A stretch of 64,000 bases of DNA, from NCBI GenBank assembly GCA_039586365.1, contig JBDHKN010000006.1, forward strand, positions 7,162 to 71,161. Direction: 5' to 3'. The DNA is from Gemmatimonadota bacterium (GTDB lineage Bacteria; Gemmatimonadota; Gemmatimonadetes; Gemmatimonadales; GWC2-71-9). Position 1 is the stretch's first letter. Each line of letters starts with the position of its first letter. The notes under the pieces are model-generated. The model saw only the letters and a list, made by a program, of their open reading frames with translations. It did not search any database and was not told the origin of the DNA. This document shows positions 37,912 through 54,437 of this stretch, one piece after another. The translations under genes and the position numbers were made by a program.

Positions 37912-37925
37912 CAGGGGAACAAAAC

Positions 37926-39158
37926 ATGGATCAGCTAGTCAAGCCACATGGCAAAGAAAAGAAGCTCAAGCCCCTTATTCTCAAGGGCAAGGAGCTTGGT
38001 GAGGAACAGAAGAAAGCCGAGTCTCTCAAGAAGATCACCATGACTTCACGCGAGACGGGAGATGCCATCATGATGGGCATCGGCGGGTTCACACCGCTCG
38101 ATGGCTTCATGGGCAGTGCCGACTGGAAGGGTGTCTGCACGGACATGAAGCTGAGCGACGGAACGTTCTGGCCGATTCCCGTGACTGTGTCGGCTACGAA
38201 GCATGACGCCGACTCGATCAAAGAGGGTCAGGAAGTGACCCTGGTCGACGAAGAGACCGGGACCAACATGGCCACAATGAAGGTGACGGAAAAGTACACC
38301 ATCGATAAGCAGTTGGAGTGCAAAGAAGTGTACAGGACGGATGATTCGGAACATCCCGGCGTAGCGATGGTGATGGCGCAGGAGGACTTCAATCTGGGCG
38401 GGCCAATCAAGGTTCTGAGTGAGAGTTACTTCCCAGAGGAGTTCAAAGATGTCTACATGCGGCCCGCTGAGTCGCGGCAGCTGTTCAATGAGAAGGGGTG
38501 GCGGACCGTAGCTGCGTTGCAGTTGCGCAACCCGATGCACCGCTCGCACGAGTACCTGGCCAAGATCGCTTTGGAAGTTCTGGACGGCCTGTTTATCCAT
38601 CAATTGGTCGGCAAACTGAAACCGGGCGACATACCGGCCGATGTTCGAGTCAACTGTATCAACACTTTGGTGGAGAACTACTTCCTGAAGGACTCGGTTG
38701 TTCAGGGCGGTTACCCACTCGACATGCGCTACGCTGGGCCACGCGAGGCCCTACTCCACGCGGTGTTTCGGCAGAACTATGGATGCAGTCACTTGATTGT
38801 GGGCCGTGACCACGCTGGAGTAGGTAGCTACTACGGACCGTTCGACGCGCAAGAGATCTTCCATGAGATACCGGCGGGAGCACTCGAGACCCAACCGCTG
38901 AAGATCGACTGGACCTTCTACTGCTTCAAGTGTCGCGGCATGGCTTCCATGAAGACCTGCCCGCATGGCAAGGATGACCGGCTTCTATTGAGCGGCACGG
39001 TTCTGAGAAAGACTCTCTCGGAGGGTGGAGATCCACCAGATGACTTCAGCCGTCCTGAGGTGTTGGCCATTCTGAAGGACTACTACTCCGGTCTGGAAGA
39101 GAAGGTCGAGATAAAGCTACACCAGTTCGCAACGGGGGATGTGAAGAAGAAGAAGTGA
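37926..39158 (+). CDS. sat: Sulfate adenylyltransferase (ATP sulfurylase)
   Basis: MDQLVKPHG..., [22 protein letters not shown], and a zinc-type CFKC...CPH motif. GTG 37908, which overlaps the qmoC stop, is an alternative start. Confidence 0.95.
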
Positions 39159-39324: not shown

Positions 39325-39642
39325 ATGGAACAGAAGGAATTCGGTGGTAGGCTGCTAGAAATCGACGAGGACGGATTCATCCAGGATCCCGATGCTTGGG
39401 ATCAGGCCGTTGCCGCCGATCTTGCGAAGACCGAAGGCGTTGACAACATGACGGACGATCACTGGAAGGTCGTCAACTATTTGAGGGAGTACTATCTCGA
39501 GTACAACATGGCTCCCATGATCCGCAAGCTTTGCAAGCAGACGGGCTTCAAGCTGAAGGAGATCTACGATCTGTTTCCCAGCGGCCCGGCGAAGGGTGCC
39601 TGTAAGGTGGCTGGACTTCCCAAGCCTACCGGCTGTGTGTGA
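39325..39642 (+). CDS. dsrC: DsrC (dissimilatory sulfite reductase-associated sulfur carrier)
   Basis: 105 aa. HWKVVNYLREYY and the C-terminal arm CKVAGLPKPTGCV, with both conserved cysteines. Confidence 0.95.
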   Translation: MEQKEFGGRLLEIDEDGFIQDPDAWDQAVAADLAKTEGVDNMTDDHWKVVNYLREYYLEYNMAPMIRKLCKQTGFKLKEIYDLFPSGPAKGACKVAGLPKPTGCV

Positions 39643-39775: not shown

Positions 39776-40309
39776 TTGTCTCTGGACGTACTGTTGCGCA
39801 ACAGTGAAGATGCCATCCTTTCGAGATGGTTAGACGACGCATTGGCTGTGTATCCCGGAGATTCAGCTGCAATATTCAAGCGCGAGAAGGATCCCTTCGC
39901 CAACCCCATTGGACGCAGCCTCCGGGAAGGAACGCGAGGAATTCTCCGTGCCCTAGTGAACGGAAAGAATGCCGAAGTGGTGCGCCAACATGTGTCCGAG
40001 ATCATGAGGATCGGGGCGGTGCAACAGCATTCGCCCTCCCGGGCAATCGGTTTCCTGTTTTCTCTCAAGGGTGCGATCCGAGCTGAACTGCATGGAGCAG
40101 TCACGCAAGCCGAATATTCGTCCGCGTTGGCGGAACTAGACAACCAGATCGATCAGATTGGTCTGATGGCCTTCGACATCTACGTCCAGTACAGAGAGCA
40201 AGTGTGCGAGCTACGCATCAACGAAGTCAAGCGGCAGGTCTCTCGGATTGTGGACAAGATGAACAGGCGTGTTCCTGATCAGGAATTGGTCCAGATCGAT
40301 CACCCATGA
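39776..40309 (+). CDS. dsrT: DsrT-like protein (RsbRD N-terminal-type domain)
   Basis: 177 aa, TTG start after GGAGGAGGG. LSRWLDDALAVYP...DPFANPIG pattern, positioned directly upstream of dsrMKJOP as described for dsrT. Confidence 0.62.
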   Translation: MSLDVLLRNSEDAILSRWLDDALAVYPGDSAAIFKREKDPFANPIGRSLREGTRGILRALVNGKNAEVVRQHVSEIMRIGAVQQHSPSRAIGFLFSLKGAIRAELHGAVTQAEYSSALAELDNQIDQIGLMAFDIYVQYREQVCELRINEVKRQVSRIVDKMNRRVPDQELVQIDHP

Positions 40310-40349
40310 GAGTGTCGGTGGGAGTGAACGTGAGAAGGAAGGGTTTCTG

Positions 40350-41339
40350 ATGAACATCCTGGTGCCCCTCTTAGGTGTGGGTGGGCTCTTCCTGCTGGGC
40401 TTACTCGGTGCAGCAGCCGGAATGCAGTGGCTTTTCGGTATTCTGTTACCCTACGTTGCCCTGGCTCTCTTTCTCGGCGGTCTGATATACCGGGTCATTA
40501 GTTGGGCGAACATCCCCGTTCCTTTCCGGATCCCGACAACATGTGGGCAGCAGAAGTCACTGCCTTGGATTAGGCAGCAAAAGCTGGACAATCCCAGCAC
40601 CACGCTTGGTGTCGTAGGGAGAATGGCGCTGGAGGTACTCTTCTTCCGCTCGTTGCTGAGGAACACCAAGACCGCATTGGTCGATGGCGACAAGCTTGCC
40701 TATGGAACTGATCTATCGCTTTGGCTCGGAGCCATGGCGATGCACTGGTCGCTGTTGATAGTCCTGATCAGACACCTGCGGTTTTTCACCAATCCGGTCC
40801 CCTCCCTTGTGACATTTATTGAACAGACTGACGGGTTCATGGAGGTGGGTCTGCCGGTCATCTTCGCGACCACAATCGTATTCGCTGTGGCATTGGCATA
40901 TCTGCTATACAGGAGGGTCGCCAATCCCCAGGTGAGATACATCTCACTGGCCGGCGACTACTTCGCGCTGTTTCTGCTGTTGGGAATCGGTATGAGCGGA
41001 TTCTGGCTCAGGCACCTGGCCAAGACAGACGTAACAGCAGTCAAAGAACTCGTCCTGGGATTGACGTATTTCGCGCCCAGCGTCCCAGACGGAATAAGCC
41101 CACTGTTCTTTGGGCACCTCTTTCTGGTGTCTGTGCTGCTGAGCTACTTCCCGGTCAGTAAGCTGCTGCACATGCCCGGTGTGTTTCTGAGCCCGACTCG
41201 GAACATGGCAAACAACAATCGAGCGGTTAGGCACGTGAACCCGTGGGATTACCCCGTCAAAGTGCACAGCTACGAAGAGTATGAGGATGAACTCAGGGAC
41301 AAGATGAAAGCGGCCGGCATCCCGGTCGAGAGGCAATAG
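40350..41339 (+). CDS. dsrM: DsrM (NarI-like diheme-b membrane subunit)
   Basis: ATG 40350 (MNILVPLLGVGG...). Five or more TM helices, a NarI/HdrE-type pattern including LLHMPGVFLSPTRN, followed by dsrK. Confidence 0.9.
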   Translation: MNILVPLLGVGGLFLLGLLGAAAGMQWLFGILLPYVALALFLGGLIYRVISWANIPVPFRIPTTCGQQKSLPWIRQQKLDNPSTTLGVVGRMALEVLFFRSLLRNTKTALVDGDKLAYGTDLSLWLGAMAMHWSLLIVLIRHLRFFTNPVPSLVTFIEQTDGFMEVGLPVIFATTIVFAVALAYLLYRRVANPQVRYISLAGDYFALFLLLGIGMSGFWLRHLAKTDVTAVKELVLGLTYFAPSVPDGISPLFFGHLFLVSVLLSYFPVSKLLHMPGVFLSPTRNMANNNRAVRHVNPWDYPVKVHSYEEYEDELRDKMKAAGIPVERQ

Positions 41340-41343
41340 ATCG

Positions 41344-42987
41344 ATGTCAAAGCCGGACGAATCAGACTATTACAGGCAGGAAGACCTGCTGAAGCTGGAC
41401 TGGCGCCCCCCCAATACGGCGTGGATGGACACTCCTGTGGACATCAGGCCGGGTTCGTTCATATATCCCGGCAAAGCCAAGAATCTCAAGGTTCTGGACT
41501 TGCCGAATCCGAGGGACTGGGCGGTAACGGACGACGACTGGAAGCTTCCTGAGGGCTGGAAGCGGACTGTCTTGGAGGGGATGGCGGAGCGGCTGAAGCG
41601 ATATCGCACGTTCAGGATCTTCATGGACACCTGTGTACGTTGCGGGGCCTGCGCAGATAAGTGCCACTTCTTCATCGGTAGTGGTGACCCAAAGAACATG
41701 CCGGTACTCCGGGCCGAACTGCTGCGGTCCATCTACCGCAAGGATTTCACGGCGCTGGGTAGGGTCTTCGGCAGGCTGGCTGGCGGCCGCGAACTCACCG
41801 AAGACGTGATCAAGGAGTGGTTTTACTACTTCTTCCAGTGTACTGAGTGTAGGCGTTGCTCGGTCTTCTGTCCTTACGGCATCGACACGGCCGAGATCAC
41901 TATGATCGGGAGGGAGCTGCTGGGCCTCCTCGGGGTTTACGTAAACTGGGTGATCGAGCCGGTCGCAAACTGCTACAAGGTGGGAAACCACTTGGGAATA
42001 CAGCCACACGGCCTGGCGGACACCTTGGAGTTCATGGCGGGTGACATCGAAGAAGCGACTGGCATCAAAGTCGACATCCCGATCAACAAGAAGGGCGCTG
42101 AGATCCTTTTCGTCACCCCGTCGGGCGATTTCGTGGCCGATCCTGGAATCTACACGTGTATGTCCTATATGCTGCTGTTCCATGAACTGGGGATCGACTA
42201 CACCTGGAGTACGTACGCTTCTGATGGGGGCAATTTCGGGCTGTTCACATCACATGAGATGATGAAACGCCTCAACGCCAAGATCTACGCCGAGGCCAAG
42301 CGTTTGGGAGTAAAGTGGATCTTGGGAGGCGAGTGCGGCCACATGTGGAGGGTAATCCATCAGTACATGGATACCATGAATGGTCCGGCTGACTTCCTGG
42401 AGGTGCCTCAGTCTCCCATAACAGGAACCGTGTTCGAGAACGCTCGATCCACAAAGATGACGCACCTGATGGAGTTCACTGCTGACCTAATCCGGCATGG
42501 AAAGCTGAAGCTCGATCCCTCACGCAATGACCACATCAGGGTCACCTTCCACGACTCGTGTAACCCGGCCCGAGCCATGGGCATCTTTGAAGAACCACGC
42601 TACGTCTTGCGAAATGTGTGCAACAACTTCTTCGAGATGCCCGAGAACACCATACGGGAGCAAACGTTTTGCTGTGGAGGTGGTGCCGGGCTGGGAACGG
42701 ACGAGAACATGGAGATGCGGTTGCGCGGTGGCCTTCCGAGGGGTAACGCGGTGAGGTACGTGCAAGAGAAGCACGGGGTGAATCAGCTTGCCGCGATGTG
42801 TGCTATCGACCGGGCAACCCTGGTGACCGTGTGTGACTACTGGGCACCTGGAGTCAAGGTGACCGGTATCAGCGAGCTGGTTGCAAATGCCATGATCTTC
42901 CGGGGTGAGAACAAGCGGACGCACAACCTACGTTTGGAACCGATCCCTGGGATGGGAGCTGAGGAGGGGGAACCCAGCGATGACTGA
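41344..42987 (+). CDS. dsrK: DsrK (HdrD-like catalytic Fe-S subunit)
   Basis: 547 aa. CVRCGACADKCHFF, CTECRRCSVFCPYG, and CCG-domain motifs (HDSCN, FCCGGGAG). Confidence 0.93.
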   Translation: MSKPDESDYYRQEDLLKLDWRPPNTAWMDTPVDIRPGSFIYPGKAKNLKVLDLPNPRDWAVTDDDWKLPEGWKRTVLEGMAERLKRYRTFRIFMDTCVRCGACADKCHFFIGSGDPKNMPVLRAELLRSIYRKDFTALGRVFGRLAGGRELTEDVIKEWFYYFFQCTECRRCSVFCPYGIDTAEITMIGRELLGLLGVYVNWVIEPVANCYKVGNHLGIQPHGLADTLEFMAGDIEEATGIKVDIPINKKGAEILFVTPSGDFVADPGIYTCMSYMLLFHELGIDYTWSTYASDGGNFGLFTSHEMMKRLNAKIYAEAKRLGVKWILGGECGHMWRVIHQYMDTMNGPADFLEVPQSPITGTVFENARSTKMTHLMEFTADLIRHGKLKLDPSRNDHIRVTFHDSCNPARAMGIFEEPRYVLRNVCNNFFEMPENTIREQTFCCGGGAGLGTDENMEMRLRGGLPRGNAVRYVQEKHGVNQLAAMCAIDRATLVTVCDYWAPGVKVTGISELVANAMIFRGENKRTHNLRLEPIPGMGAEEGEPSDD

Positions 42988-43360
42988 CAAGGCAAAGGCA
43001 ATTGCCGGTCTGGCTGTCTTCGTCGTTCTGGTGACATATCCCTTCTGGTCCGGGCTGGGATCTGATGCAGAAGCTGGCGCACCCGAGCTGGAGCTGCCCG
43101 AGGACGAAGCCAATTGTGTGGAAGAGACGCAGTTTATGACGGCGAACCACATGGACTTGTTGAACCAATGGCGGAACGCGGTAGTGCGCGACGGCGAAAG
43201 GGAGTACATGTCGACCTCAGGTGAACGGCACGTGATGAGCCTGACCGGTACGTGTATGGGATGTCACAGCAACAGGGACGCGTTTTGCACGCGGTGTCAT
43301 GACTACTCGGACGTGTCACCGGCCTGCTGGGATTGTCATGTCGAGCCGGAAGGGAGCTGA
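42980..43360 (+). CDS. dsrJ: DsrJ (periplasmic triheme cytochrome c)
   Basis: ATG 42980 overlaps the dsrK end. N-terminal anchor helix, the conserved NCVEETQFM..H segment, and three CxxCH motifs (CMGCH, CTRCH, CWDCH). Confidence 0.9.
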   Translation: MTDKAKAIAGLAVFVVLVTYPFWSGLGSDAEAGAPELELPEDEANCVEETQFMTANHMDLLNQWRNAVVRDGEREYMSTSGERHVMSLTGTCMGCHSNRDAFCTRCHDYSDVSPACWDCHVEPEGS

Positions 43361-43363
43361 ACG

Positions 43364-44167
43364 ATGGGGGTGAGCCGACGCGATTTTCTCAAGGAGGCCG
43401 GATCCGCTGCATTGGGCGTGGGCTGTGGCTTGCCGTTCCTGGGCACTGGGTGCAGGGCCGGGAGTGAAGAGCCACATGAAGCTGAATCGTCTGCAAGCCA
43501 ATGGGCGATGGTGGTTGATATCGAGAAGTGCCGCAGCGAGGAAGTGCGGCGAGTCTGTACGGAAGCCTGCAATATCGCGCACAATGTTCCTGCGATCCCT
43601 GATCCGGCAGAAGAGATCAAATGGATCTGGGCAGAGCATTATGAGAACGTTTTTCCCGATCAAGTCCACAACCGCACGGCCGCCTTCATAAGACAGACAC
43701 CGGTGCTCGTGCTCTGCAACCATTGTGACAACCCACCCTGCGTAAGGGTATGTCCCACCCAGGCTACTTGGAAGCGGGAGGCGGATGGAATCGTAATGAT
43801 GGACATGCACCGGTGCATAGGCTGTCGCTATTGCATGGCGGCATGTCCCTACGGATCCAGGAGCTTCAACTGGGGTGACCCGCGTGAGTACATCCCGACG
43901 GACGAGAACGGCCAGTTTCTGTCGGATTACCCGACACGGTCGAAGGGTGTGGTGGAAAAGTGCAACTTCTGCGCAGAGAGATTGCGGGAGGGACTTCGGC
44001 CGGCCTGTGTGGAAGCGGTGAACCAGATACCGGGTGGGGAGGGGGCACTGACGTTCGGGGATCTGAGTGATCCGGAGTCAGAGGTCAGTCGTATGTTGAG
44101 TGAGACTAATACGATCAGCAGAAGAGTAAACCTAGGAACCGGCCCAAATGTGTACTATAAGATCTAA
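43364..44167 (+). CDS. dsrO: DsrO (periplasmic ferredoxin-like, Tat-exported)
   Basis: Twin-arginine signal MGVSRRDFLKEAG. Poly-ferredoxin motifs CNHCDNPPCVRVCP, CIGCRYCMAACP and CNFCAERL. Confidence 0.9.
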   Translation: MGVSRRDFLKEAGSAALGVGCGLPFLGTGCRAGSEEPHEAESSASQWAMVVDIEKCRSEEVRRVCTEACNIAHNVPAIPDPAEEIKWIWAEHYENVFPDQVHNRTAAFIRQTPVLVLCNHCDNPPCVRVCPTQATWKREADGIVMMDMHRCIGCRYCMAACPYGSRSFNWGDPREYIPTDENGQFLSDYPTRSKGVVEKCNFCAERLREGLRPACVEAVNQIPGGEGALTFGDLSDPESEVSRMLSETNTISRRVNLGTGPNVYYKI

Positions 44168-44209
44168 CTTGCTACGCGCGACAATCGGGAGAACCAAGAG
44201 GTAGCCGCT

Positions 44210-45370
44210 ATGCTGGAAACCGCATTCCGCGGGGGTAGGAAGTATTGGATTCTCCTAGGGGTCTGGGGATTGTTGATCCTTGTTGGCTTGGGAGCCTATG
44301 GCAGGCAGTTGGTGGAAGGTCTGCGTATCACCGGTATGAGCCAAGACGTGACTTGGGGATTGTACATCGCGCAATTCACTTTCCTCGTCGGTGTGGCAGC
44401 TTCTGCAGTAATGGTGGTTTTGCCGTACTACCTGCACAACTACAAGGCGTTCGGCAAGATGGTGATTCTGGGCGAGTTTCTCGCCATTTCGGCGGTGCTC
44501 ATGTGCATGTTGTTCGTCTTCGTCGACATGGGTCAGCCCAGGAGGGTGCTCAACGTACTGCTCCACCCTACCCTCAACTCCGTGATGTTCTGGGATTTCC
44601 TGGTCCTTGGAGGCTACGGCATCATAAACTTCGTTGTCGGGGCCGTGACATTTGACGCCGAGCGGAAGGGAACCCCTGCGCCCAGGTGGATCAAGCCGCT
44701 AATCTACCTTTCGATCCCTTGGGCGGTCAGCATCCATACGGTCACGGCCTTTCTCTATTCAGGGCTTGAAGCCAGGTCATTCTGGATGACCGCTATATTG
44801 GCTCCCCGTTTCTTGGCTTCGGCATTTGCGTCGGGCCCCAGCCTGTTGATCGTGCTGGCTCTGATTCTGCGGAGGTTCACCAAGTTCGACCCCGGCAAGG
44901 AAGCTATTCAGAAGCTGGCTCTGATAGTCACCTATGCGATGGTGATTAACGTCTTCTTCGTAGGCGTCGAGCTGTTTTCCGGCCTATACAGTGACATGCC
45001 GCACCATGTGCATGCGTTCGAGTATCTGTTCGTTGGCCTGCACGGGCATGCCGCTCTCACTCCTTGGGTGTGGGTTGGCGAGGTCTTCACGGTGTGTTGT
45101 GTTGTGGGTCTGTTGATCCCCAAGGTACGTAGGCAGGAGAAGTACTTGGCAGTGCTTGCCGTTGGGGTGATCACCGCCATTTGGATCGAGAAGGGTGTCG
45201 CAATGGTGGTGACTGGCTTCATTCCGTCGCCACTGGGCAGGATAACGGAGTATGCGCCAACAGCGCCGGAGATCGCAATCACGATCGGTGTCTACGCGTT
45301 GGGGTTCTTCGTGCTTACAGTGCTTTACAAGATGGTTGTGAGTGTTAGAGAACAGTTGGATCTAGCTTGA
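44210..45370 (+). CDS. dsrP: DsrP (NrfD/PsrC-like integral membrane subunit)
   Basis: 386 aa, ~10 TM helices, with an NrfD-like N-terminal pattern ([15 protein letters not shown]). Follows dsrO. Confidence 0.9.
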
Positions 45371-45419
45371 AAGAAGGAGCGGTAACAACGCCATCATTCC
45401 AAGACCAAAGGAGATGACG

Positions 45420-46640
45420 ATGGCAGACTTAGGTAGCAACGGTACGCCGTTACTGGACGAACTGGAGAAAGGGCCGTGGCCCAGTTTTGTCACGGAAATC
45501 AAGCAGACTGCCGGGTTTAGCAAACCAGCCGAGCAGTTGTTGGCGTTGCTGGAACGGTCCTACAGAGAGAGAATTGGTCACTGGAAGCACGGCGGTATTG
45601 TGGGTGTGATGGGATACGGTGGAGGCGTGATCGGCCGCTACAACGATCTACCTGAGGAATATCCGGAGATCGCCCATTTCCACACTCTGCGGGTCAACAT
45701 GCCTACCGGTTGGTTCTACACGTCCGAGGCGTTGAGAACGATCTGTGACATTTGGGAGAGACACGGCTCCGGATTGACAAACATGCATGGGTCCACGGGT
45801 GACATCATCTTGTTGGGCACCACGACGGACGAGCTCGAGCCGACTTTTGCCGAGTTGACTGCCAACAGTTTCGACCTGGGTGGATCCGGTTCCGATATGC
45901 GCACGCCTAGCGCGTGTGTGGGTCCTGCCCGGTGCGAATGGGCTTGCTACGACACGCTACACCTGTGCAATGACCTTACACAACATTTCCAAGACGAGCT
46001 GCACCGCCCAGCATTTCCCTACAAGTTCAAGTTCAAGTGTGCGGGCTGTCCGAACGACTGTGTGGCGTCAGTAGCCAGAGCAGATATGTCGATTATCGGC
46101 ACCTGGCGGGACGAGATCCAGATCGATCAGGCAGAGGTGAAAGCTGCGGCCAAGACGGGACTCGACATCCAGAAGGATGTCTGCTTCCTTTGCCCCACCA
46201 AATGCATCGAGTGGGATGGCAAGAAGCTGGAGATCGACGACGAGAACTGCGTGAAGTGCATGCACTGTATCAACGTTATGCCCAAGGCGTTGCGCCCCGG
46301 CAAAGATCGTGGGGCGACGATTCTGCTCGGTGCCAAAGCACCGATTGTCGAAGGTGCATTGTTATCCTCGGTGTTGGTCCCGTTCATGAAACTCGAACCA
46401 CCGTATGATGAGCTCAAGGACCTCGTGGAGAGGATTTGGGATTTCTGGGGCGAGCACGGCAAGAACCGAGAGCGTGTGGGAGAGCTGATGCAGCGTGTGG
46501 GGCTGGGGAACTTCTTGGAGGCGATCGAGGTGGAGCCGATTCCGGAAATGATCGCGTATCCGCGAGAGAACCCATACGTATTCTACGAAGAGTACTATGA
46601 AGAAGGCGAAGAAGGGGAAGAAGCGGAGGAGGACGAGTAA
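45420..46640 (+). CDS. dsrA: Dissimilatory sulfite reductase alpha subunit, reductive bacterial-type sequence features
   Basis: [89 protein letters not shown] 45420, 6 nt after AAGGAG, is preferred to 45414. Unusual poly-Glu tail. Confidence 0.97.
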
Positions 46641-46702
46641 AGCAACCGGATCAGTGGATCCGACAGAGCATTAAAAAACAATCGTTCTTGGGAGATATAT
46701 CG

Positions 46703-47779
46703 ATGGCAACCGAGAGAATAACTGATATCGGGCCTCCGCATTACGAAAAATTCCTACCACCCGTGATAAAGCAAAACTACGGGAAGTGGAAATACCACGA
46801 GATCCTCAGGCCCGGCGTGATGGTTCACGTGGCCGAATCCGGCGACAAGCTCTTCACGGTGCGTGCGGCCTCACCACGGCTGCTCGGCATCAAGAAGATC
46901 CGCGAGTTCGCGGATCTGGCGGACAAGTATTGTGGTGGGCACCTCCGCTTCACTAGCCGCAACAACGTCGAATTCCTGCTTACGGACGATTCGAAGATCA
47001 ACGATCTCATCGCCGACCTGAAGAAATTGGGACATCCGGTGGGCGGCATAGGCAACGCGATCTCCAACATCGTTCACACGCAGGGATGGGTACACTGCCA
47101 CTCAGCTGCGACGGATGCATCCGGTGTTGTGAAAGCGGTGATGGACGATCTGTGTGGGTACTTCACTGGCGATATCGAACTGCCAGGCAAGCTGCGGGTC
47201 GCCCTTGCGTGCTGTCTCAATATGTGTGGTGCGGTGCACTGTTCGGACATCGCGATCCTAGGTATACACCGCAGGCCGCCAAGAATCCAAGCTGGTCTGA
47301 ATAAGGTATGCGAAATCCCCAACGTGGTGGCTTCCTGTCCCACGGCAGCAATCCGGCCGGCAACAGTTGACGGTGCTCCCACGGTAGAGATAGATGAAGA
47401 GAACTGCATGTTCTGCGCGAACTGTTTCTCGGTCTGCCCGGCACTACCAATGGCTGACGCGCTCAACGACGGTGTATCCATCTGGGTCGGGGGGAAAGTC
47501 TCGAACGCCCGCAAGGAACCAACCTTCTCCAAGCTGGCTATTCCGTTCTTGCCCAACAATCCGCCGCGGTGGCCGGAGGTGACTGAGGCTGTGCGGAACA
47601 TAGTGGAAGTATGGGTCAAGAACGCCCGCAAGTTCGAGCGGATGGGTGAGTTCATCGAGCGTATCGGCTGGCCCCGTTTCTTCAAGATGACGGGCATTGA
47701 GTTCGCTAAAGAGCATATTGACGATTACAAATACGCGGGCCTTTCGTACAAACGGTCTGCACAGCTCAGACACAACTAG
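46703..47779 (+). CDS. dsrB: Dissimilatory sulfite reductase beta subunit
   Basis: [73 protein letters not shown], and a ferredoxin insert [12 protein letters not shown]. Confidence 0.97.
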
Positions 47780-47789: not shown

Positions 47790-48035
47790 GTGGCCGTCAC
47801 GCCCGAAGAAGTAGCGGACGCCATGTACGAGTTGGTCAAGGAGTATCAGGGCAAGAAGAAGCTCAAAGCCGGTGACTTGACCAAGGCGATGATCCAGAAG
47901 TATGGCGAAGGCGAAGTGGACAAGAAGCTGTGCAAGGCCGCCATCCGGACTCTGATGGATTCGGGAAGGTGTGTCTACACGTACTTCGGCGGCAGCTTCA
48001 TAGAACTCCCGCCCGAGGAAGGCGTTGAGAGGTAG
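47790..48035 (+). CDS. dsrD: DsrD-like small winged-helix protein
   Basis: GTG 47790, 6 nt after AGGAGG, gives 81 aa. Lys-rich centre (QGKKKLKAGDLTK) and a C-terminal ...AIRTLMDSGRCVYTYFGGSFIEL resembling the DsrD ...ILTALV...YWSSGSTTMY pattern. Located directly after dsrB. Confidence 0.7.
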   Translation: MAVTPEEVADAMYELVKEYQGKKKLKAGDLTKAMIQKYGEGEVDKKLCKAAIRTLMDSGRCVYTYFGGSFIELPPEEGVER

Positions 48036-48147
48036 GCTGTCTCCCGGGGGGAAAGTGATGTCAGATGCATGCACTCTCCGCTCCCAGCGGGCGGAAGAGG
48101 CGTGTGTCTGTGACGATAGATAATCACGTGTCACGCGAGGTGATCGT

Positions 48148-49824
48148 ATGGCTATGAAGAAGGTCAAGAAAAAGAAGAAGTCTTTCGGTTCGAGGGGCGG
48201 CGCCTCGCGTGACCAATCGCCACTGCGACCCAAACACGTGGAGAAGAAGCCCCCATGTAGGGATACATGTCCGAGCGGCAACGATATTCGCAAGTTTCTG
48301 ACGACGCTCGCTCATGCTGAGCGGCTAGGAAAGACGGCGGAGCAAGCACTCCAAGAAGCTTGGGAGGTCTACACGGACACTAGTCCGTTTCCGTCGGTGT
48401 GTGGCCGGGTATGTCCGGCTCCATGTGAAACCGGATGCAACCGGAAGGACCTCGATGGTGCGGTGAGTATCAATAAGGTCGAACGGGCCATCGGCGACTT
48501 CGGTCTGGCGAGGGGTCTCAAGCTGAAGGCCCTCTCTGATGAGAAGAAACCGCAGAAGATAGCCGTCGTAGGCGCGGGTCCCAGTGGCCTTTCCTGTGCC
48601 TACCAGCTGGCTCGGCGCGGATATGGCGTAACCGTCTTCGAGTCCACGGAGAAGACTGGCGGCATGTTGCGGTGGGGCATCCCCGGGTATCGGCTACCCG
48701 AATCGGTACTCGACGGAGAGATCCAGAAGATCCTCGACCTGGGAGTGGAACTCAAGTGCGGCGTGAAGGTGGGCAAGGACATCACCGTTGATGAGCTGAA
48801 GCAGTCATACGATGCCGTATACGTCGCGCTCGGCGCCCAGCAGGGAGTCACTCTGGGCGTTGAAGGTGAGGATGCTCCCAACGTGTTCTCCGGAGTGGAT
48901 TTCCTCAGCCGTTTCCACCACGGTGAAAAGCTGGACCTGGGCAAGGATGTGGTGGTAATCATCGTCGGTGGAGGTGACACCGCCATCGACGCGGCGCGGA
49001 TCTGCAAACGGCTGGGCGCCAATGTAACGATCCTATACCGCCGAACCCGCAAGGAGATGCCGGCGATCGATGAGGAAGTCGATGAGGCGATCAAAGAAGG
49101 CATCACAATCGAGTTTCTGGCCGCACCAATAGGTTTCCGCAAAGAGGGCGACCTCGTCGTAGCGATGCGAGCTATCCGCATGGAGTTGGGTGAGCCGGAC
49201 TCGTCAGGTCGTCGTCGACCGGTTCCCATCGAGGGTTCGGAGTTCGAGATACCCGCCAGCGCAGTCATCTCTGCGGTGAGTCAGGCACCCGATTTCGGCG
49301 GCTTCGAGGATCTCATCGAAGGCAAGGATTGGATCAAGGTCGACAACCAGGGGGCAACCAAGGTGGCAGGAATATGGGCTGGTGGCGACGTGACAGCCCT
49401 GGATCTAGTCACGACTGCCGTAGGTCACGGTCGGCGCGCAGCCGAGGCGATCGAACGCAAATTCCTGGGCAGGCAATTCGAAGAAGACAGGATGACGGTG
49501 ATCAGAAGTGATCGTATGCTGTTGGATCACTACGACAAGATAGACCGTCAAGAACCTGCAGCCCTGGATGTTGGCGAGCGTTTGACCTCGATCGAAACGG
49601 AAGTCAACTTGGGTCTAACCGATGACCAAGTGCTGACTGAAGCGCGGCGCTGCATGAGCTGCGGATACTGCATCGATTGCGAGAAGTGCTGGATGTACTG
49701 TCAGGACCAGGCGATTGACAAGCCGCTGCAGAAGGGATTGCTGTATCCGTTCAAGATGCAGAACTGCACAGGCTGCAGTAAGTGTGCGGAAATATGCCCT
49801 TGTGGCTTCATAGAGATGCACTGA
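48148..49824 (+). CDS. dsrL: DsrL-type NAD(P)H:acceptor oxidoreductase (GltD-like flavoprotein with a C-terminal 2x[4Fe-4S] ferredoxin domain)
   Basis: 558 aa. GRVCPAPCETGCNR, IAVVGAGPSGLSCAYQLARRGYGVTVFE, IVGGGDTAIDAAR, and a C-terminal CMSCGYCIDCEKCWMYCQ...CTGCSKCAEICPCG. N-terminus MAMKKVKKKKKS. Confidence 0.85.
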   Translation: MAMKKVKKKKKSFGSRGGASRDQSPLRPKHVEKKPPCRDTCPSGNDIRKFLTTLAHAERLGKTAEQALQEAWEVYTDTSPFPSVCGRVCPAPCETGCNRKDLDGAVSINKVERAIGDFGLARGLKLKALSDEKKPQKIAVVGAGPSGLSCAYQLARRGYGVTVFESTEKTGGMLRWGIPGYRLPESVLDGEIQKILDLGVELKCGVKVGKDITVDELKQSYDAVYVALGAQQGVTLGVEGEDAPNVFSGVDFLSRFHHGEKLDLGKDVVVIIVGGGDTAIDAARICKRLGANVTILYRRTRKEMPAIDEEVDEAIKEGITIEFLAAPIGFRKEGDLVVAMRAIRMELGEPDSSGRRRPVPIEGSEFEIPASAVISAVSQAPDFGGFEDLIEGKDWIKVDNQGATKVAGIWAGGDVTALDLVTTAVGHGRRAAEAIERKFLGRQFEEDRMTVIRSDRMLLDHYDKIDRQEPAALDVGERLTSIETEVNLGLTDDQVLTEARRCMSCGYCIDCEKCWMYCQDQAIDKPLQKGLLYPFKMQNCTGCSKCAEICPCGFIEMH

Positions 49825-49828: not shown

Positions 49829-51238
49829 GTGAGCACACCGCGAGTACTGATCGCAGGGCTACGCGGAGGCAGCGGCAAGACGGTAATATCTCTGGGACTC
49901 GTGGCAACCTGGCGCAAGCAAGGTTGTCACGTTTCGCCCTTCAAGAAGGGACCAGACTACATCGATGCAGCCTGGCTATCGGCTGCGGCAGGCAAACCCT
50001 GCCGGAACCTCGATCTCTTCCTCATGACCCCAGATACGGTCCTGCGCTCGTTCGCAGCTGCGGCCGGGCCGGCCGACGTGGCTGTCATAGAGGGCAATCG
50101 CGGGTTGTTCGACGGCATGGACGCCCGGGGCAGCTACAGCACGGCCGAGTTGGCCAAGTTGCTGAAGAGCCCGGTGTTGCTCGCTGTCGATTGCACAAAG
50201 GCAACGCGTACCATCGCGGCAATGGTCCTAGGTTGTCAGAGACTCGATCCCAGCGTCTCGCTTCGCGGTGTCATTCTGAACAATGTGGCCGGTCCTCGGC
50301 ACGAGTCGGTGCTGCGTGAAGCAATGGCTGAGATCAGCGGGCTGCCCGTGGTGGGTGCGCTGGGCCGAATCCCCGGAGAGCTCTTTCCAGAACGGCACCT
50401 TGGGCTCGTGCCACCCCAAGAGCACGAGCAATTGTCTCCAGCGATACAACAGGCCGCCAGTGCGGTCGAACAGCAGTTGGACTTGGCCGCCATCTGGGAC
50501 ATTGCGCGCCAAGCTCCAGAGCTCGACCCCCACGACTCGAATCCGACTGCCACAGGTGACGAGGGGCGGAATGCCGTCAGGATCGGTGTGTTCCGCGACG
50601 CTGCATTTCAGTTCTACTATCCCGAGAACCTCGAGGCCCTGGTTCGGCAGGGGGCGATCTTGCTGGAGGTTTCTCCGCTCCACGATACTGCGCTACCGGA
50701 CGTGGATGCCCTGTACCTCGGGGGAGGATTTCCGGAGACAGCAGCACCGGCGTTGGCAGACAACAGGCAATTCCTGGACTCGCTACGTGACTCAGTCAAC
50801 AGTGGCTTGCCGGTATACGCAGAGTGCGGGGGAGCGGTCTTTCTGGGGGAGAAGCTCCTCTACAATCATAGAGAATACCCGATGGCGGGCATACTACCAG
50901 TCGTTTTCTGCTTCGAGGCAAAACCGCGGGGGCACGGCTACGCCGTACTCGAAACCGTGGAGAACAACCCGTTTTTCACAGTCGGGGAATGTCTCCAAGG
51001 GCATGAGTTCCACTACACCCACATGCAGTCGTCTGCGGTGGAGGATCTGAAGTTCGCATTCCGGGTCCGTCGCGGCTATGGATTCGATGGCCAAAGGGAC
51101 GGCTTGTGTTATCGCAATGTGCTCGCGTCCTACACTCACCTGCATGCGTTGGGGACGGAGAGTTGGGCTCCGTCCGTGGTTCGGGCCGCCACCCGGTTCA
51201 AGTCGCGGAGCGCGAGCCATACTGGCGTTGGCCTCTAG
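49829..51238 (+). CDS. dsrN: DsrN (cobyrinate a,c-diamide synthase homologue, putative siroheme amidase)
   Basis: 469 aa. IAGLRGGSGKTVISLGL P-loop and a glutamine-amidotransferase half with ECGG. Located after dsrL in the dsr cluster. Confidence 0.85.
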   Translation: MSTPRVLIAGLRGGSGKTVISLGLVATWRKQGCHVSPFKKGPDYIDAAWLSAAAGKPCRNLDLFLMTPDTVLRSFAAAAGPADVAVIEGNRGLFDGMDARGSYSTAELAKLLKSPVLLAVDCTKATRTIAAMVLGCQRLDPSVSLRGVILNNVAGPRHESVLREAMAEISGLPVVGALGRIPGELFPERHLGLVPPQEHEQLSPAIQQAASAVEQQLDLAAIWDIARQAPELDPHDSNPTATGDEGRNAVRIGVFRDAAFQFYYPENLEALVRQGAILLEVSPLHDTALPDVDALYLGGGFPETAAPALADNRQFLDSLRDSVNSGLPVYAECGGAVFLGEKLLYNHREYPMAGILPVVFCFEAKPRGHGYAVLETVENNPFFTVGECLQGHEFHYTHMQSSAVEDLKFAFRVRRGYGFDGQRDGLCYRNVLASYTHLHALGTESWAPSVVRAATRFKSRSASHTGVGL

Positions 51239-51250: not shown

Positions 51251-51904
51251 GTGCCGATCATCACAATCTCGCGGGGGACGTTGAGTGGCGGACAAGCGGT
51301 GGCTGAGTGTCTCGCTGGTAGACTTGGGTACCCGTGTGTCGGTCGCGAGATCGTTCAAGAAGCGGCCCGAAAGCTGGGTGTATCTGAGGAGACCCTGAGT
51401 GGGAAGTTCGAGACCCCCCCTGGACGATGGCATCGGCTGACTAACGAGCGTAGGCTGTACCTTCACGCGGTTCAGGCTGCCCTAGCGGACCAGTGTGTGA
51501 CTGGGGAGCTGGTTTACCACGGTCTGGCTGGGCAGCTGCTGCTGCGGGGCCAGCCCGGAGTGCTGCGAGCCCGGCTTATTGCACCATTGGATATGCGAGT
51601 GCGTGCCTTGACGGAAGCACACCATAGAATGAGCCCCAAGGCTGCGGAGGAATTCATCGAGAGCGTGGATGAAGACCGCAGGCGTTGGGTCAGACTGATG
51701 TACGGAGCCGACGTCGAGGACCCATCTCTGTACGATCTAACGATCAACCTACAGTCCATTTCCACTGAGACAGCGTGTACGAGCATTGCGGAAGCGGTTG
51801 CACAGCCACAGTACAAGATAACGGACGAAGTAAGGGCGAAGCTGGAGGCGTTCGCGGCCCAATGCCACGAACAACTGCAGGCGGCTGCGTCGCAGCGCTC
51901 ATGA
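51251..51904 (+). CDS. Cytidylate-kinase-like family protein (PF13189-type, degenerate P-loop), paralog 1
   Basis: 217 aa, GTG start. IITISRGTLSGGQAVAECLAGRLGY has the family's SR.xGSGG pattern in place of GxxGxGKS/T. Function unknown. Confidence 0.65.
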   Translation: MPIITISRGTLSGGQAVAECLAGRLGYPCVGREIVQEAARKLGVSEETLSGKFETPPGRWHRLTNERRLYLHAVQAALADQCVTGELVYHGLAGQLLLRGQPGVLRARLIAPLDMRVRALTEAHHRMSPKAAEEFIESVDEDRRRWVRLMYGADVEDPSLYDLTINLQSISTETACTSIAEAVAQPQYKITDEVRAKLEAFAAQCHEQLQAAASQRS

Positions 51905-51993
51905 GGCGGATGAACTGTTCATGCCGCTTGCAGGCACAAAGTTGGCTAGCAGGGCGAACTAGCGCCGTCGCCGACGTTAAAGAGGGCTGAAGA

Positions 51994-52812
51994 GTGGCGA
52001 TCATTACCATCAGTCGAGGAAGCAAGAGTGGCGGGCAGGAAATGGCGGAATGTCTGGCCGCGCAACTGCAGTATCGCATCGTTGGACGAGAGATTGTACA
52101 GGAAGCGGCTACCAGGCTCGACGTTTCAGAGGAGGCCTTGAGCCACCAGATGGAGCACACACCCAAGCTGTGGGATAGGCATGCTGCGACGCGGCGGCTA
52201 TATGTGGCGGCCGTGCAAGCGGCCCTCGCCGAGTATGTGGCCGAGGGAGATCTGGTGTACCATGGCTTGGCGGGACAACTACTCCTGAGGGGCCTACCGG
52301 CTGTGCTGCGGGTGCGGCTCATCGCACCGAGAGAGAGGCGGGTCCGAACGCTGGTGGAGACGCGTCAGATGGATGAGGCCTCGGCCGAAGAGTTCATTCA
52401 GCATGTCGATGGAGCACGTGCTCGCTGGGTCAAAATGATGTACGGCGAAAACATCGAGGACCCGGCACTTTATGACATGGTGGTAAACCTGGAGACCATG
52501 TCTGTGCCCGGTGCCTGTGCTGCACTCGCGACTGTGGCAAAGCGGCCGGACTTTGCGGTTACTGGTGAGGTAAAGGCGTGTCTACGGGACTTTCGCTTGG
52601 CGTCCAACGTCAAAGTCGCGCTAGCGAGAGCACGTGAGACACGGCCTCACATTCTGGACGTGTGGGTCAGAGGGGGCGTCGTCGAGATATCCGGCAGCGT
52701 TCCCGTCCTCAAAACAGGCCGGATGGGGGATCGTATCAGCGAGGTAGCACGTTCTGTCCCCGGCGTTGAGGAAGTCCGTATGAAGCTGCAGTGGTACGAC
52801 CCGTATCCTTAG
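51994..52812 (+). CDS. Cytidylate-kinase-like family protein, paralog 2, with a C-terminal BON-like domain
   Basis: 272 aa. IITISRGSKSGGQEMAECLAAQLQY, with about half of positions identical to paralog 1 by eye over ~190 aa. The extra C-terminus VKVALARA...VWVRGGVVEISGSVP...VARSVPGVEEVRMKL resembles a BON domain. Confidence 0.65.
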   Translation: MAIITISRGSKSGGQEMAECLAAQLQYRIVGREIVQEAATRLDVSEEALSHQMEHTPKLWDRHAATRRLYVAAVQAALAEYVAEGDLVYHGLAGQLLLRGLPAVLRVRLIAPRERRVRTLVETRQMDEASAEEFIQHVDGARARWVKMMYGENIEDPALYDMVVNLETMSVPGACAALATVAKRPDFAVTGEVKACLRDFRLASNVKVALARARETRPHILDVWVRGGVVEISGSVPVLKTGRMGDRISEVARSVPGVEEVRMKLQWYDPYP

Positions 52813-52851
52813 GACAGAATCGCGCGTTGGACGAGTGAAGGTGAGGGGTGA

Positions 52852-53922
52852 GTGTCCGACTCTACTGAACAGCCTATGCCTACTATCGCGAGCACACCTG
52901 CCACAACAGGGCAGGTGCTCATAGATCCGGGAACAGCGGAAGGTCCTCAGCGGTTGCGCGTACTTCCTGCGGTGATCCGCCTAGCGGTGTTGCTCTTTGT
53001 CATCATGTTGCTCAACCCGACGGAGGTGCACGCGTGCCAGGAAGCAGCAGTGGCGGCCGACACCAGTATGACCTCATGGTGGGTGTGGCCGCTTGTTCTC
53101 TTCCTAATCACGTTTGTCATGGGGATCCTGGCTGCTCTAGGTGGTGTTGGAGGGGGAGTGCTCTTCGTGCCAATTGTCAGCGGTTTCTTCCCATTTCACC
53201 TCGACTTCGTTCGCGGCTGCGGACTGTTAGTGGCGCTGAGCGGTGCACTTGCCGCGGGTCCGGGTTTCTTGAAGATGAACTTGGCCAGTCTGCGCTTGGC
53301 CATGCCTGTGGCGTTGATTGCATCCACTTGTGCCATTATCGGCGCCATGATCGGGCTCGCGCTCCCGACGAACGTTGTGCAGACGGCGCTAGGTGCCACC
53401 ATCCTGGGGATAGTCGCCCTAATGATGGCAGCGAAGAAGTCAGAGTTCCCCGAAGTCGCCGAAGCGGACCGCCTCTCTTCAGCGCTCAAGATCTATGGTG
53501 TGTATACTGAGGCCAGTCTGGGCCGGGCGATAGACTGGAAAGTGCACCGGACGGTATACGGTCTACTTCTATTCATCATCATCGGTGTCATGGCAGGCAT
53601 GTTTGGGCTCGGCGCGGGTTGGGCCAACGTTCCGGTTCTGAACCTGGTTATGGGTGCCCCGCTCAAGATCAGCGTGGCCACCAGCAAGTTTCTCCTCTCC
53701 ATAACGGATACGTCGGCGGCTTGGATCTATGTTAACAATGGTGCTGTGATCCCGATGATGGTTGTCCCCTCGCTGGTCGGCATCATGCTGGGCTCTTTCA
53801 TCGGCGTGCGAATTTTGCGGGTCGCCAAGCCGGCGTTTGTTCGCAAGATGGTGATCGGACTGTTGCTTTTCGCCGGTGCCAAAGCGATCACCAAAGGACT
53901 AGACCTCCCGTTCATCGTCTAG
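52852..53922 (+). CDS. TauE/SafE (TSUP, DUF81) family anion permease
   Basis: 356 aa. LAALGGVGGGVLFVPI and a repeated 4-TM-type architecture typical of TSUP sulfite/sulfonate exporters. Has a long N-terminal extension. Confidence 0.8.
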   Translation: MSDSTEQPMPTIASTPATTGQVLIDPGTAEGPQRLRVLPAVIRLAVLLFVIMLLNPTEVHACQEAAVAADTSMTSWWVWPLVLFLITFVMGILAALGGVGGGVLFVPIVSGFFPFHLDFVRGCGLLVALSGALAAGPGFLKMNLASLRLAMPVALIASTCAIIGAMIGLALPTNVVQTALGATILGIVALMMAAKKSEFPEVAEADRLSSALKIYGVYTEASLGRAIDWKVHRTVYGLLLFIIIGVMAGMFGLGAGWANVPVLNLVMGAPLKISVATSKFLLSITDTSAAWIYVNNGAVIPMMVVPSLVGIMLGSFIGVRILRVAKPAFVRKMVIGLLLFAGAKAITKGLDLPFIV

Positions 53923-54388: not shown

Positions 54389-54437
54389 CACTTGGGTTTC
54401 TGAAGGCGGCAGTGTGACTACTGATTCTAGCGGAACC

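Follow-up and report, generated by a model that had tools for sequence, protein, structure and literature searches.

Does a locus in which dsrD stands beside dsrL encode a hybrid sulfur metabolism? The original prediction, made on the 64-kb window considered here (the whole stretch of DNA that was analysed), took DsrL as a marker of sulfur oxidisers and read its position next to dsrD and reductive-looking DsrAB as a mixed marker set reported from only a few organisms. Both premises are outdated. Since 2020, DsrL has been divided into DsrL-1, the type of oxidisers, and DsrL-2, and wherever DsrL is paired with DsrA of the reductive bacterial type it is always type 2 (PMC7596348). DsrD, DsrL-2C and reductive DsrAB occur together across about ten phyla (PMC10591310), and among 68 related species-level loci dsrL directly follows a dsrD-like gene in 60, an adjacency far beyond chance; the other eight have a dsrN-sized gap of 1.4-2.0 kb from dsrD to dsrL, with dsrN detected in six of them. 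Since the dsrABDL-2 arrangement has been explicitly described (PMC7596348, section 17; PMC10591310), DsrL alongside reductive DsrA is of type 2 and the lineage is itself already known, the set is not mixed but a coherent reductive one, DsrABD with DsrL-2. This combination is known, common and ordinary, and what looks like a hybrid sulfur metabolism is the published DsrABD-DsrL-2 reductive module, with nothing unusual about it. We consider it likely that the window holds the standard reductive Dsr module of an organism that reduces sulfate or sulfite, embedded in a complete island for sulfate respiration in a Gemmatimonadota MAG.

Layout of the island and its host

The island runs on the plus strand in the order aprBA, two small genes, qmoABC, sat, dsrC, dsrT, dsrMKJOP, dsrA, dsrB, dsrD, dsrL and dsrN, and the whole pathway, aprBA through dsrN, is encoded in one contiguous stretch of the window:

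29430..29897, plus strand: aprB, adenylylsulfate reductase beta subunit (TIGR02060, 186 bits, cutoff 136)
29962..31854, plus strand: aprA, adenylylsulfate reductase alpha subunit (TIGR02061, 878 bits, cutoff 642)
31939-32322, plus strand: Ogr/Delta-like zinc-finger protein in the aprA-qmoA interval (PF04606, 31.6 bits)
32319-33209, plus strand: CxxCxxCC-domain protein in the same interval (PF03692, 32.8 bits)
33074-34474 (ORF), plus strand: qmoA (HdrA-like match), its true start probably near 33230
34479-36722, plus strand: qmoB (HdrA-like match)
36844-37911, plus strand: qmoC (NF038018, 284 bits, slightly below the cutoff of 300)
37908..39158, plus strand: sat, sulfate adenylyltransferase (NF003166, 522 bits, cutoff 387)
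39325..39642, plus strand: dsrC, 105 aa (six-frame motif search; PF04358, 131 bits)
39776..40309, plus strand: dsrT-like gene (PF14361 RsbRD_N, 63.7 bits)
40269..45370, plus strand: dsrM, dsrK, dsrJ, dsrO and dsrP (NF038037, NF045796, NF038038, NF045797 and NF045798, each above its cutoff)
45414..46640, plus strand: dsrA, reductive bacterial type by its sequence (TIGR02064, 573 bits, cutoff 393)
46688..47779, plus strand: dsrB (TIGR02066, 494 bits, cutoff 341)
47790..48035, plus strand: dsrD of a divergent subfamily, 81 aa (synteny, transitive profile link, predicted fold)
48148..49824, plus strand: dsrL, type DsrL-2 (NF009410, 577 bits, cutoff 516)
49829..51238, plus strand: dsrN, sirohaem a,c-diamide synthase homologue (NF002204 and TIGR00379, 431-440 bits)
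51251..53922, plus strand: two paralogous cytidylate-kinase-like genes and a TauE/SafE-family exporter (PF13189 twice, PF04972, PF01925)

The gene identifications and coordinates of the original prediction hold, with family models exceeding their cutoffs for AprA, AprB, Sat, DsrC, DsrA, DsrB and DsrMKJOP; this includes the presence of sat, aprBA, qmoABC, dsrT and dsrMKJOP (Pfam and NCBIfam models) and the order dsrABD-dsrL-dsrN with dsrD adjoining dsrL; dsrN starts 4 nt past the dsrL stop. The dsrC gene at 39325-39642 had not been listed there, yet is present, and the C-terminus of its product (...GACKVAGLPKPTGCV) keeps both functional cysteines. The position of the dsrT-like gene directly 5' of dsrM is kept across related loci. 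Downstream of dsrN, the second cytidylate-kinase-like paralogue carries a BON domain (PF04972), and in many relatives the cytidylate-kinase-like pair and the TauE/SafE exporter likewise accompany the island in synteny.

One and the same contig carries the island and a ribosomal-protein/secY operon, and those SecY homologues that bear names are all from Gemmatimonadota. This physical linkage to core Gemmatimonadota genes supports the host assignment without recourse to binning, which is therefore not its sole basis. Earlier publications already present the lineage as a putative sulfate reducer of cosmopolitan distribution in sediments. Sulfate reduction was inferred for the sister bin SG8-17, described as Gemmatimonas-like, by Baker 2015 (PMC4411801); this bin (dsrAB clade DSR-J) belongs to the same lineage as the window, and SG8_17 encodes a DsrD-like protein with 95% identity to that of the window. 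Loffler 2020 also has the lineage in its trees of DsrA and DsrL, which include Gemmatimonadales das_tool.cocacola.36 and Planctomycetes RBG_13_63_9 (PMC7596348), while the supplement of Diao et al. 2023 has no Gemmatimonadota among its entries (PMC10591310). Related DsrL proteins are 63-84% identical to that of the window and their gene order is alike; what sets the window apart from the SG8-17 and Loffler-tree relatives is the linkage of its island to the ribosomal-protein/secY operon.

Enzyme types and the direction of the pathway

That DsrAB looked reductive, as originally predicted, is borne out by neighbour-joining trees built with few references. Window DsrA forms one clade with the enzymes of D. 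vulgaris, D. norvegicum and A. fulgidus (97.5% bootstrap), and DsrA proteins from dsrABEFHC clusters and phages form a clade of their own (95% in the same tree); the oxidative DsrB clade is monophyletic at 100%, with window DsrB outside it. Against DsrA structures in the PDB, window DsrA scores 566 bits (A. fulgidus) and 528 bits (D. vulgaris), and its motif reads G-H-W-K-H-G-G, not G-Y-W-K-G. Oxidative DsrA references were found neither among PDB entries nor on plasmids; they came first from viral contigs bearing the rDSR1F primer signature and then from a metagenome scan, and were classed by gene context, the DsrE, DsrF and DsrH encoded there being confirmed by Pfam. At the DNA level the DSR1F primer has no match at the dsrA site when two mismatches are allowed, and only the protein motif is informative. 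As judged from these trees and alignments, window DsrAB is of the reductive bacterial type.

The 558-aa product of dsrL has N-terminal Fer4_20, Pyr_redox_2 and C-terminal Fer4_21 domains. Matches to PF14691, PF07992 and PF00070 mark an NfnB/GltD-like FAD and NAD(P)H core, residues 35-440 of which score 255-258 bits against the NfnB structures 4YLF and 5JCA, and Cys37, 41, 89, 93 and 97 as well as Glu112 are kept in at least 65 of 66 relatives. A two-[4Fe-4S] ferredoxin domain follows at the C-terminus (PF14697, residues 507-557), its cysteines between 502 and 552 being invariant or almost so in the 66 relatives. Such a domain on a linker is a published feature of DsrL-2 and is absent from NfnB and GltD (PMC7596348); together with the match of NF009410 over the full length (residues 18-557), it identifies the protein as DsrL rather than ordinary GltD or NfnB.

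Further published features of DsrL-2 are a YRR motif and the lack of two DsrL-1A traits, an insertion of ~32 aa and a long linker; DsrL-2 accompanying reductive DsrA further has Ser/Thr at the position of NfnB Cys39 and Arg at that of Cys42 (PMC7596348). In window DsrL the motif is Y297-R298-R299, present in 66/66 relatives and in none of nine DsrL proteins from dsrEFH clusters, the linker is short and a 31-column gap in the alignment stands in place of the ~31-aa insertion. Ser24 is found in 64/66 relatives and Arg27 in 63/66; at these columns DsrL from dsrEFH clusters has S/T-x-K-C, with Cys for Arg27, and these proteins, at 642-665 aa, are longer and carry the 31-aa insertion. The DsrL tree, a neighbour-joining tree with few references in which DsrL-2A and 2B are unsampled, likewise splits the window clade from the dsrEFH-cluster clade (82.5% and 100% bootstrap). 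These features place the 558-aa protein, on its sequence, in DsrL-2 of the reductive-associated kind, and we tentatively assign it to DsrL-2C because of Arg27 and the context of DsrD and reductive DsrAB. Its NADP(H) specificity and electron transfer to DsrAB are predicted from DaDsrL-2, which is strictly NADP(H)-dependent (PMC7596348). The originally suggested link to NAD(P)H-coupled sulfite reduction agrees, in its NADPH form, with this biochemistry.

The dsrABDL-2 clusters of Loffler 2020 and Diao 2023 have the same order of dsrAB, dsrD and a dsrL with YRR, no dsrEFH attached, and the same inferred function, NADPH-driven sulfite reduction. The type enzyme that has been characterised biochemically, DsrL-2 of Desulfurella amilsii, is alike by description (YRR, short NAD(P)-binding domain and linker, reductive DsrA), but this organism is without sat and apr, both present in the window; window DsrL is probably about as distant from it as is marine acidobacterial DsrL-2 (38% identical). 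Ca. Sulfotelmatobacter and Ca. Sulfomarinibacter also combine DsrD, DsrL-2 and reductive DsrAB with the full sulfate pathway. Peatland and marine Acidobacteriota share the DsrD subfamily at 67% identity, whereas their DsrL is just 50-51% identical, and in the peatland acidobacterial MAGs dsrL pairs with dsrC and dsrD with dsrN, unlike in the window. Two of the MAGs with published dsrABDL-2 clusters, Nitrospirae/CG2-30-53-67 and Actinomycetota GCA_003599855, carry an extra oxidative dsrAB-dsrL set, none of which is seen in the window, where by comparison aprBA to dsrN is contiguous. Oxidative dsrABEFHCMKLJOPN clusters of the Allochromatium type, taken from metagenomes, encode homologous DsrA, B, C, M, K, L, J, O, P and N, but they have dsrEFH, lack dsrD and show the DsrA motif G-Y-W-K-G.

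The absence of dsrEFH from the window, also part of the original prediction, holds: no ORF in the 64 kb matches PF02635 (DsrE/DsrF) or PF04077 (DsrH), models that recognise genuine DsrE/F/H of oxidative clusters with 100-116 bits, and a tblastn search of the window and of 78 related loci with the latter proteins is negative. With dsrD present and dsrEFH absent, the context in the window and in the loci of its relatives is reductive. A second DsrEFH type, from reductive-type genomes, was described in 2026 (PMC13293266); the searches above cover the type found in oxidative clusters. By the published biochemistry of other organisms, sulfate would be activated and then reduced to sulfite by Sat, AprBA and QmoABC, sulfite would be converted by reductive-type DsrAB with DsrC into the DsrC trisulfide, and the latter would be reduced by the membrane complex DsrMKJOP. 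DsrD would bind DsrAB and activate it allosterically, the Fe-S flavoprotein DsrL-2 would pass electrons from NADPH, not NADH, to DsrAB, and DsrN would amidate the sirohaem cofactor.

It is conceivable, but in our estimation rather unlikely, that these genes run at least part-time in the oxidative or disproportionating direction, oxidising sulfide or sulfur by way of DsrC, DsrAB, AprBA and Sat, with DsrL-2 reducing NADP+ and TauE exporting sulfite. Indeed, the TauE/SafE exporter is syntenic with the island, and the literature leaves the direction open for DsrD-bearing reductive-type DsrAB, as in peatland Acidobacteria, the combination being found also in sulfide oxidisers and sulfur disproportionators such as Desulfurivibrio and cable bacteria (PMC8794893); however, all known rDsr oxidisers are without DsrD (PMC8794893). 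Known oxidisers with oxidative rDsrAB also have DsrL-2, but this oxidiser-linked DsrL-2 keeps Cys as the fourth distal-cluster ligand, whereas Arg at this position, as in the window, is reported only for DsrL-2 with reductive DsrA (PMC7596348). Moreover, none of the 78 relatives has dsrEFH of type I within 10 kb of dsrL, and DsrL-2C beside reductive DsrAB is an indicator of reduction according to Diao et al. (PMC10591310). Sulfate respiration in the reductive direction is therefore the reading that we prefer.

Identity of the 81-residue protein

The dsrD ORF begins with GTG 10 nt after the dsrB stop, with AGGAGG 7 nt upstream, and this 10-nt gap is conserved in related loci; a dsrD-like gene follows dsrB in 69 loci. 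Its product nevertheless has no match to PF08679 or to any NCBIfam model even at E up to 10, and phmmer against the PDB returns no match, 1UCR included. Nine DsrL-linked orthologues from other phyla likewise miss PF08679, which scores 118 bits on DsvD, and in every DsrL-2-linked cluster examined DsrD escapes the Pfam and NCBIfam models. We therefore have to consider that the protein is an unrelated small winged-helix DNA-binding regulator that lies 3' of dsrB by coincidence. All 120 homologues among the matches listed are annotated as hypothetical. An AlphaFold2 model (pLDDT 89; helices 5-19, 27-38 and 45-58, strands 62-65 and 69-72) predicts the H-b-H-H-b-b topology of a winged helix, a generic fold, and Foldseek against the PDB retrieves generic winged-helix regulators only, the best being of the Fur, PadR and MCM types (E 0.006 or weaker), with 1UCR outside the top 50.

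Despite this, it appears improbable that the protein is anything other than DsrD. Profile searches grade into proteins at or near the PF08679 threshold: 5 of 42 diverse subfamily members match this model at E <=0.01, and the family profile retrieves, with E 9e-7, a protein (P0369) that passes the threshold (27.1 against 24.2 bits) and is encoded between a gene end and dsrN, in the context dsrB-like/dsrD/dsrN. With a shallow profile, hhalign against 1UCR gives a probability of just 0.2; with a deeper one the alignment to DsvD is in register from end to end (E 0.004), at a probability of only 8%, and it pairs Tyr63 and Gly67 with Tyr54 and Gly58 of DsvD in a wing that otherwise differs (YTYFGGS in place of YWSSGSTT). 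The lysine-rich patch (Lys23, 24, 26, 32, 45 and 49) is invariant, and acidobacterial members of the subfamily that are ~67% identical are the DsrD of the literature. It is the deeper profile and the intermediate sequences that settle the identity. On this indirect evidence from sequence and model, the 81-aa protein is a divergent DsrD, predicted to bind and activate DsrAB; such binding and allosteric activation have been demonstrated with the DsrD of A. fulgidus and of D. vulgaris only (PMC8794893).

The subfamily stands beside DsrL-2 under at least eight phylum-level labels; its marks are the wing YTYFGGS, Cys48 and Cys61, conserved within the Gemmatimonadota clade, and its escape from PF08679. 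Speculatively, and with a small chance of being right, the DsrL-2-linked DsrD could form a distinct subfamily co-adapted with DsrL-2, such that DsrAB, DsrD and DsrL act as one NADPH:sulfite reductase assembly and the hairpin described below sets the ratio of DsrABD to DsrL. On this reading, pipelines that rely on the Pfam DsrD model score such genomes as lacking dsrD and could assign their sulfur metabolism the wrong direction. The absence of dsrD serves as a marker of oxidative metabolism, so that the escape of DsrD from the Pfam and NCBIfam models can mislead.

The spacer between dsrD and dsrL

Two elements were considered in this spacer:

48063..48109, plus strand: GC-rich imperfect hairpin (dG -29 kcal/mol, z -5.5)
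48110..48127, no strand: GTGA-N10-TCAC, the "Rex-like" site, a chance match

The palindromic half-sites at 48110-48127, 20 nt 5' of the dsrL start, exist as originally noted, but it is highly improbable that a Rex-type NADH-sensing repressor acts on them to couple dsrL expression to redox state: the motif occurs twice in the window where 1.5 occurrences are expected by chance (41 of 100 shuffles reach that count), GTGA-N4-12-TCAC is found in none of 54 orthologous dsrD-dsrL spacers, no promoter-like site lies close by, and the Rex operator is an 18-bp palindrome, TTGTGAA-W4-TTCACAA (PMC2883068), so that its half-sites are 6 nt apart (GTGA-N6-TCAC), whereas the site here has N10 spacing and is without the flanking TT/AA. 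A Rex operator before dsrL was thus rejected on frequency, half-site spacing and conservation.

What the spacer offers as a candidate for regulation is instead a conserved hairpin. Folding each sequence against its shuffles yields a hairpin with z < -2 in 35 of 48 related spacers, and an inverted-repeat search places its 3' end at a median of 39 nt before the dsrL start, with stem sequences that vary by lineage. RNAalifold, applied to the spacers as aligned by MAFFT, returns no consensus structure because loop lengths differ, and no T-run is seen 3' of the hairpin, so that a classical intrinsic terminator is not shown. By analogy with other organisms, the hairpin most likely terminates transcription in part or stabilises a 3' end, which would leave more dsrABD than dsrLN mRNA. 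Its covariation score is 0.244, compared with 0.164 in shuffles, and it is as a structure that the hairpin is conserved between dsrABD and dsrLN.

Gene content of the island and its host

The Dsr genes of the window make up the reductive DsrABD-DsrL-2 module, which has been described before, as has the lineage that carries it here. They lie in a single unbroken block of + strand genes, flanked on either side by tetrapyrrole/sirohaem genes:

108-3716: ribosomal protein operon (L6, L18, S5, L30, L15) and secY, sharing a contig with the island
24766-28023: upstream tetrapyrrole genes hemL, hemC, hemB
29.4-53.9 kb, +: the gene block
within the block, +: sulfate activation genes aprB, aprA, two small genes, qmoA, qmoB, qmoC, sat, in this order
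31939-33209, +: the aprA-qmoA insert, encoding an Ogr/Delta-like zinc-finger protein and a CxxCxxCC (PF03692) protein
within the block, +: Dsr core dsrC, dsrT, dsrM, dsrK, dsrJ, dsrO, dsrP, dsrA, dsrB, the 81-aa gene, dsrL, dsrN, in this order
39325-39642, +: dsrC, between sat and dsrT, with a C-terminal CysB-X10-CysA motif and both functional cysteines (PF04358, 131 bits)
48063-48109: GC-rich hairpin in the dsrD-dsrL spacer (dG -29 kcal/mol, z -5.5)
51251-53922, +: 3' of dsrN, a pair of PF13189 cytidylate-kinase-like paralogues, of which the second has a BON domain, plus a TauE/SafE exporter
54375-59296: downstream genes for a precorrin-2-dehydrogenase-like protein, a ferrochelatase-GlutR_N fusion (748 aa), CbiX and a methylase/HemD fusion

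The dsrD/dsrL cluster of the original prediction is real and its genes were correctly identified, as judged by family models and synteny: AprA, AprB, Sat, DsrM, DsrK, DsrJ, DsrO, DsrP, DsrA and DsrB all exceed curated family-model cutoffs. To that gene list we add dsrC, which was located through a search for its C-terminal cysteine motif. dsrC is overlapped on the other strand by a longer, seemingly spurious ORF (39355-40143) with no Pfam match. The qmoA ORF overlaps the CxxCxxCC gene, and thus the true start of qmoA is probably near 33230. Roughly 15-20 related loci share the synteny of the cytidylate-kinase-like pair and exporter. An extra pair of genes on the - strand (61650-63982) encodes a DsrK-like protein with CCG and Fer4 domains and a DsrM-like protein of the NarI type; comparable additional dsrMK-like pairs occur 3' of dsrN in several related loci.

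The ribosomal and secY genes tie this horizontally mobile island to its host independently of binning, the named SecY homologues all being from Gemmatimonadota (81-94% identity). The exact DsrL and the exact 81-aa protein are both recorded on one NCBI contig of 201,401 bp.

DsrAB type, DsrL subtype and frequency of the arrangement

The window DsrA scores 566 bits against the Archaeoglobus fulgidus enzyme and 528 bits against those of D. vulgaris and D. norvegicum in the PDB. Since the PDB references for DsrA are reductive enzymes only, oxidative references were gathered in two steps. Viral contigs were scanned for the coding signature (K-G-Y-W-K-G) of primer rDSR1Fa, which matches Allochromatium, Alkalilimnicola and SUP05-related symbionts (Loy et al.), yielding phage-borne dsrA at 40-48% identity. 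A metagenome scan with a phage-borne sequence as query then retrieved long bacterial contigs with the canonical order dsrA-dsrB-dsrE-dsrF-dsrH-dsrC-dsrM-dsrK-dsrL-dsrJ-dsrO-dsrP, two of which have Pfam-confirmed DsrE, DsrF and DsrH (100-116 bits). In a DsrB-rooted neighbour-joining tree of DsrA from the window, 20 related genomes and the references (200 bootstraps), the window and its 20 relatives form one clade with the three crystallised reductive enzymes (97.5%), separate from a clade of dsrEFH-context and phage sequences (95%). The window DsrB likewise falls outside the oxidative clade (100%), and the primer site in the window DsrA reads G-H-W-K-H-G-G, as in the reductive structures. Judged from these sequences, and as far as distance trees with a small set of references allow, the predicted reductive type of the window DsrAB holds.

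Oxidative and DsrL-2-linked reductive sequences are sister groups for DsrA; for DsrB, in a paralogue-rooted neighbour-joining tree, the oxidative clade arises inside the DsrL-2-linked reductive sequences. This DsrB branching may be a long-branch artefact, or it may echo an origin of oxidative Dsr in DsrL-2-linked lineages, as has been proposed. Oxidative-type dsrA was seen on T4-like phage contigs (L093, L096, L120 and L140); L096, from IMG/VR, carries dsrA and dsrB together, adjoining Gp59-like, PhoH and lysozyme genes, and three phage contigs carry two copies of dsrA in tandem.

The 558-aa protein is DsrL, as predicted: its match to NF009410 (577 bits) is full-length, and it bears a C-terminal two-cluster ferredoxin domain in addition to its NfnB/GltD core. 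Its subtype was assessed with the diagnostic features of Löffler et al. (PMC7596348), each compared with DsrL of dsrEFH clusters. The YRR motif at residues 297-299 is invariant in relatives (66/66) and found in none of nine oxidative-cluster proteins; the roughly 31-aa insertion of the latter, which are 642-665 aa long, is missing; and the distal-cluster ligand positions hold Ser24 and Arg27 (S-P-L-R-P) rather than S/T-x-K-C-P, the arginine state being reported only for DsrL-2 paired with reductive DsrA (PMC7596348). The window group and the dsrEFH-cluster group also split in the DsrL tree (82.5% and 100%). By these features the protein is assigned to DsrL-2 of the reductive-associated kind, relative to a comparison set made up of dsrEFH-cluster DsrL.

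The predicted lack of dsrEFH in the window is borne out. No window ORF matches the DsrE/F or DsrH models, and tblastn with confirmed DsrE, DsrF and DsrH gave nothing in the window (best E 0.038, inside qmoB) or in 78 related loci, the tblastn queries being DsrEFH from oxidative clusters. A DsrEFH type II was described in 2026 from reductive-type genomes (PMC13293266).

These 78 loci came from one scan of species-representative genomes with the window DsrL. Most carry Gemmatimonadota labels and some Planctomycetota; those at 50-59% identity are from Ignavibacteria, Spirochaetales, Zixibacteria, 'delta proteobacteria', Tariuqbacter, LCP-89 and Acidobacteriota. The order dsrA-dsrB-dsrD-dsrL(-dsrN) is kept wherever the contig is sufficiently long. 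In 60 of 68 loci dsrD and dsrL are immediate neighbours, in that order; the other eight have a dsrN-sized interval of 1.4-2.0 kb, with dsrN detected in six. The idea of a rare mixed marker set is therefore superseded by this adjacency and by the literature: a 'dsrABDL-2 arrangement' is described (PMC7596348, section 17), as is the DsrL-1/DsrL-2 division, with type 2 in all reductive-type organisms that have DsrL (PMC7596348), and DsrD with DsrL-2C is a reductive signature across many phyla (PMC10591310). A Gemmatimonas-like organism, SG8-17, is described as a putative sulfate reducer (PMC4411801), and published DsrA and DsrL trees contain Gemmatimonadales and Planctomycetes sequences (PMC7596348).

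Identity of the small gene after dsrB

Direct searches with the 81-aa protein (47790-48035) found no match to PF08679, NCBIfam or the DsrD structure 1UCR (DsvD), and all 120 listed homologues are 'hypothetical' and without a Pfam domain. A family profile run against 1.84 billion representatives found 167 proteins. Five of 42 diverse full-length family members match PF08679; P0369, a protein from this profile search, exceeds the gathering threshold (27.1 versus 24.2 bits), and its gene lies directly after a gene end and directly before dsrN. A diverse family profile aligns in register with DsvD over 59 columns (E 0.004), matching the wing tyrosine and glycine, and the AlphaFold2 model (pLDDT 89) is a winged helix of DsrD topology. 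The gene starts 10 nt after dsrB in the window and most relatives, and acidobacterial members of its subfamily, which are the proteins named DsrD in the literature, are about 67% identical to it. On these indirect tests, the 81-aa protein is very probably a divergent DsrD.

PF08679 likewise gives no match to any of nine orthologues that are linked to DsrL in other phyla (DsvD control, 118 bits). DsrD next to DsrL-2, in the window and at related loci L054-L066, is missed by PF08679 and NCBIfam under every phylum label examined; surveys scoring dsrD by these models would record DsrL-2-linked dsrD as absent.

The spacer before dsrL

The Rex-like site proposed before dsrL (GTGA-N10-TCAC, 48110-48127) is a chance match: the window contains two copies of the pattern, where 1.5 would be expected, its spacing is unlike that of the Rex operator (TTGTGAA-W4-TTCACAA), and it recurs in none of 54 orthologous spacers. 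The hairpin of the same spacer has counterparts. Of 48 related spacers, 35 contain a local hairpin that scores z below -2; the median distance from its 3' end to the dsrL start codon is 39 nt, and pair counts exceed shuffled and slid controls. Between lineages the stems are entirely different in sequence, such that structure and not sequence is conserved (spacers of related loci L001-L074). In acidobacterial loci a hairpin immediately follows the dsrD stop, and there is none where dsrN starts 24-30 nt after dsrD. There is no T-run 3' of the hairpin and no sigma-70-like promoter near it. We infer, as the most economical reading, that it would separate dsrABD from dsrLN, either as a partial terminator or as a 3' structure that stabilises mRNA.
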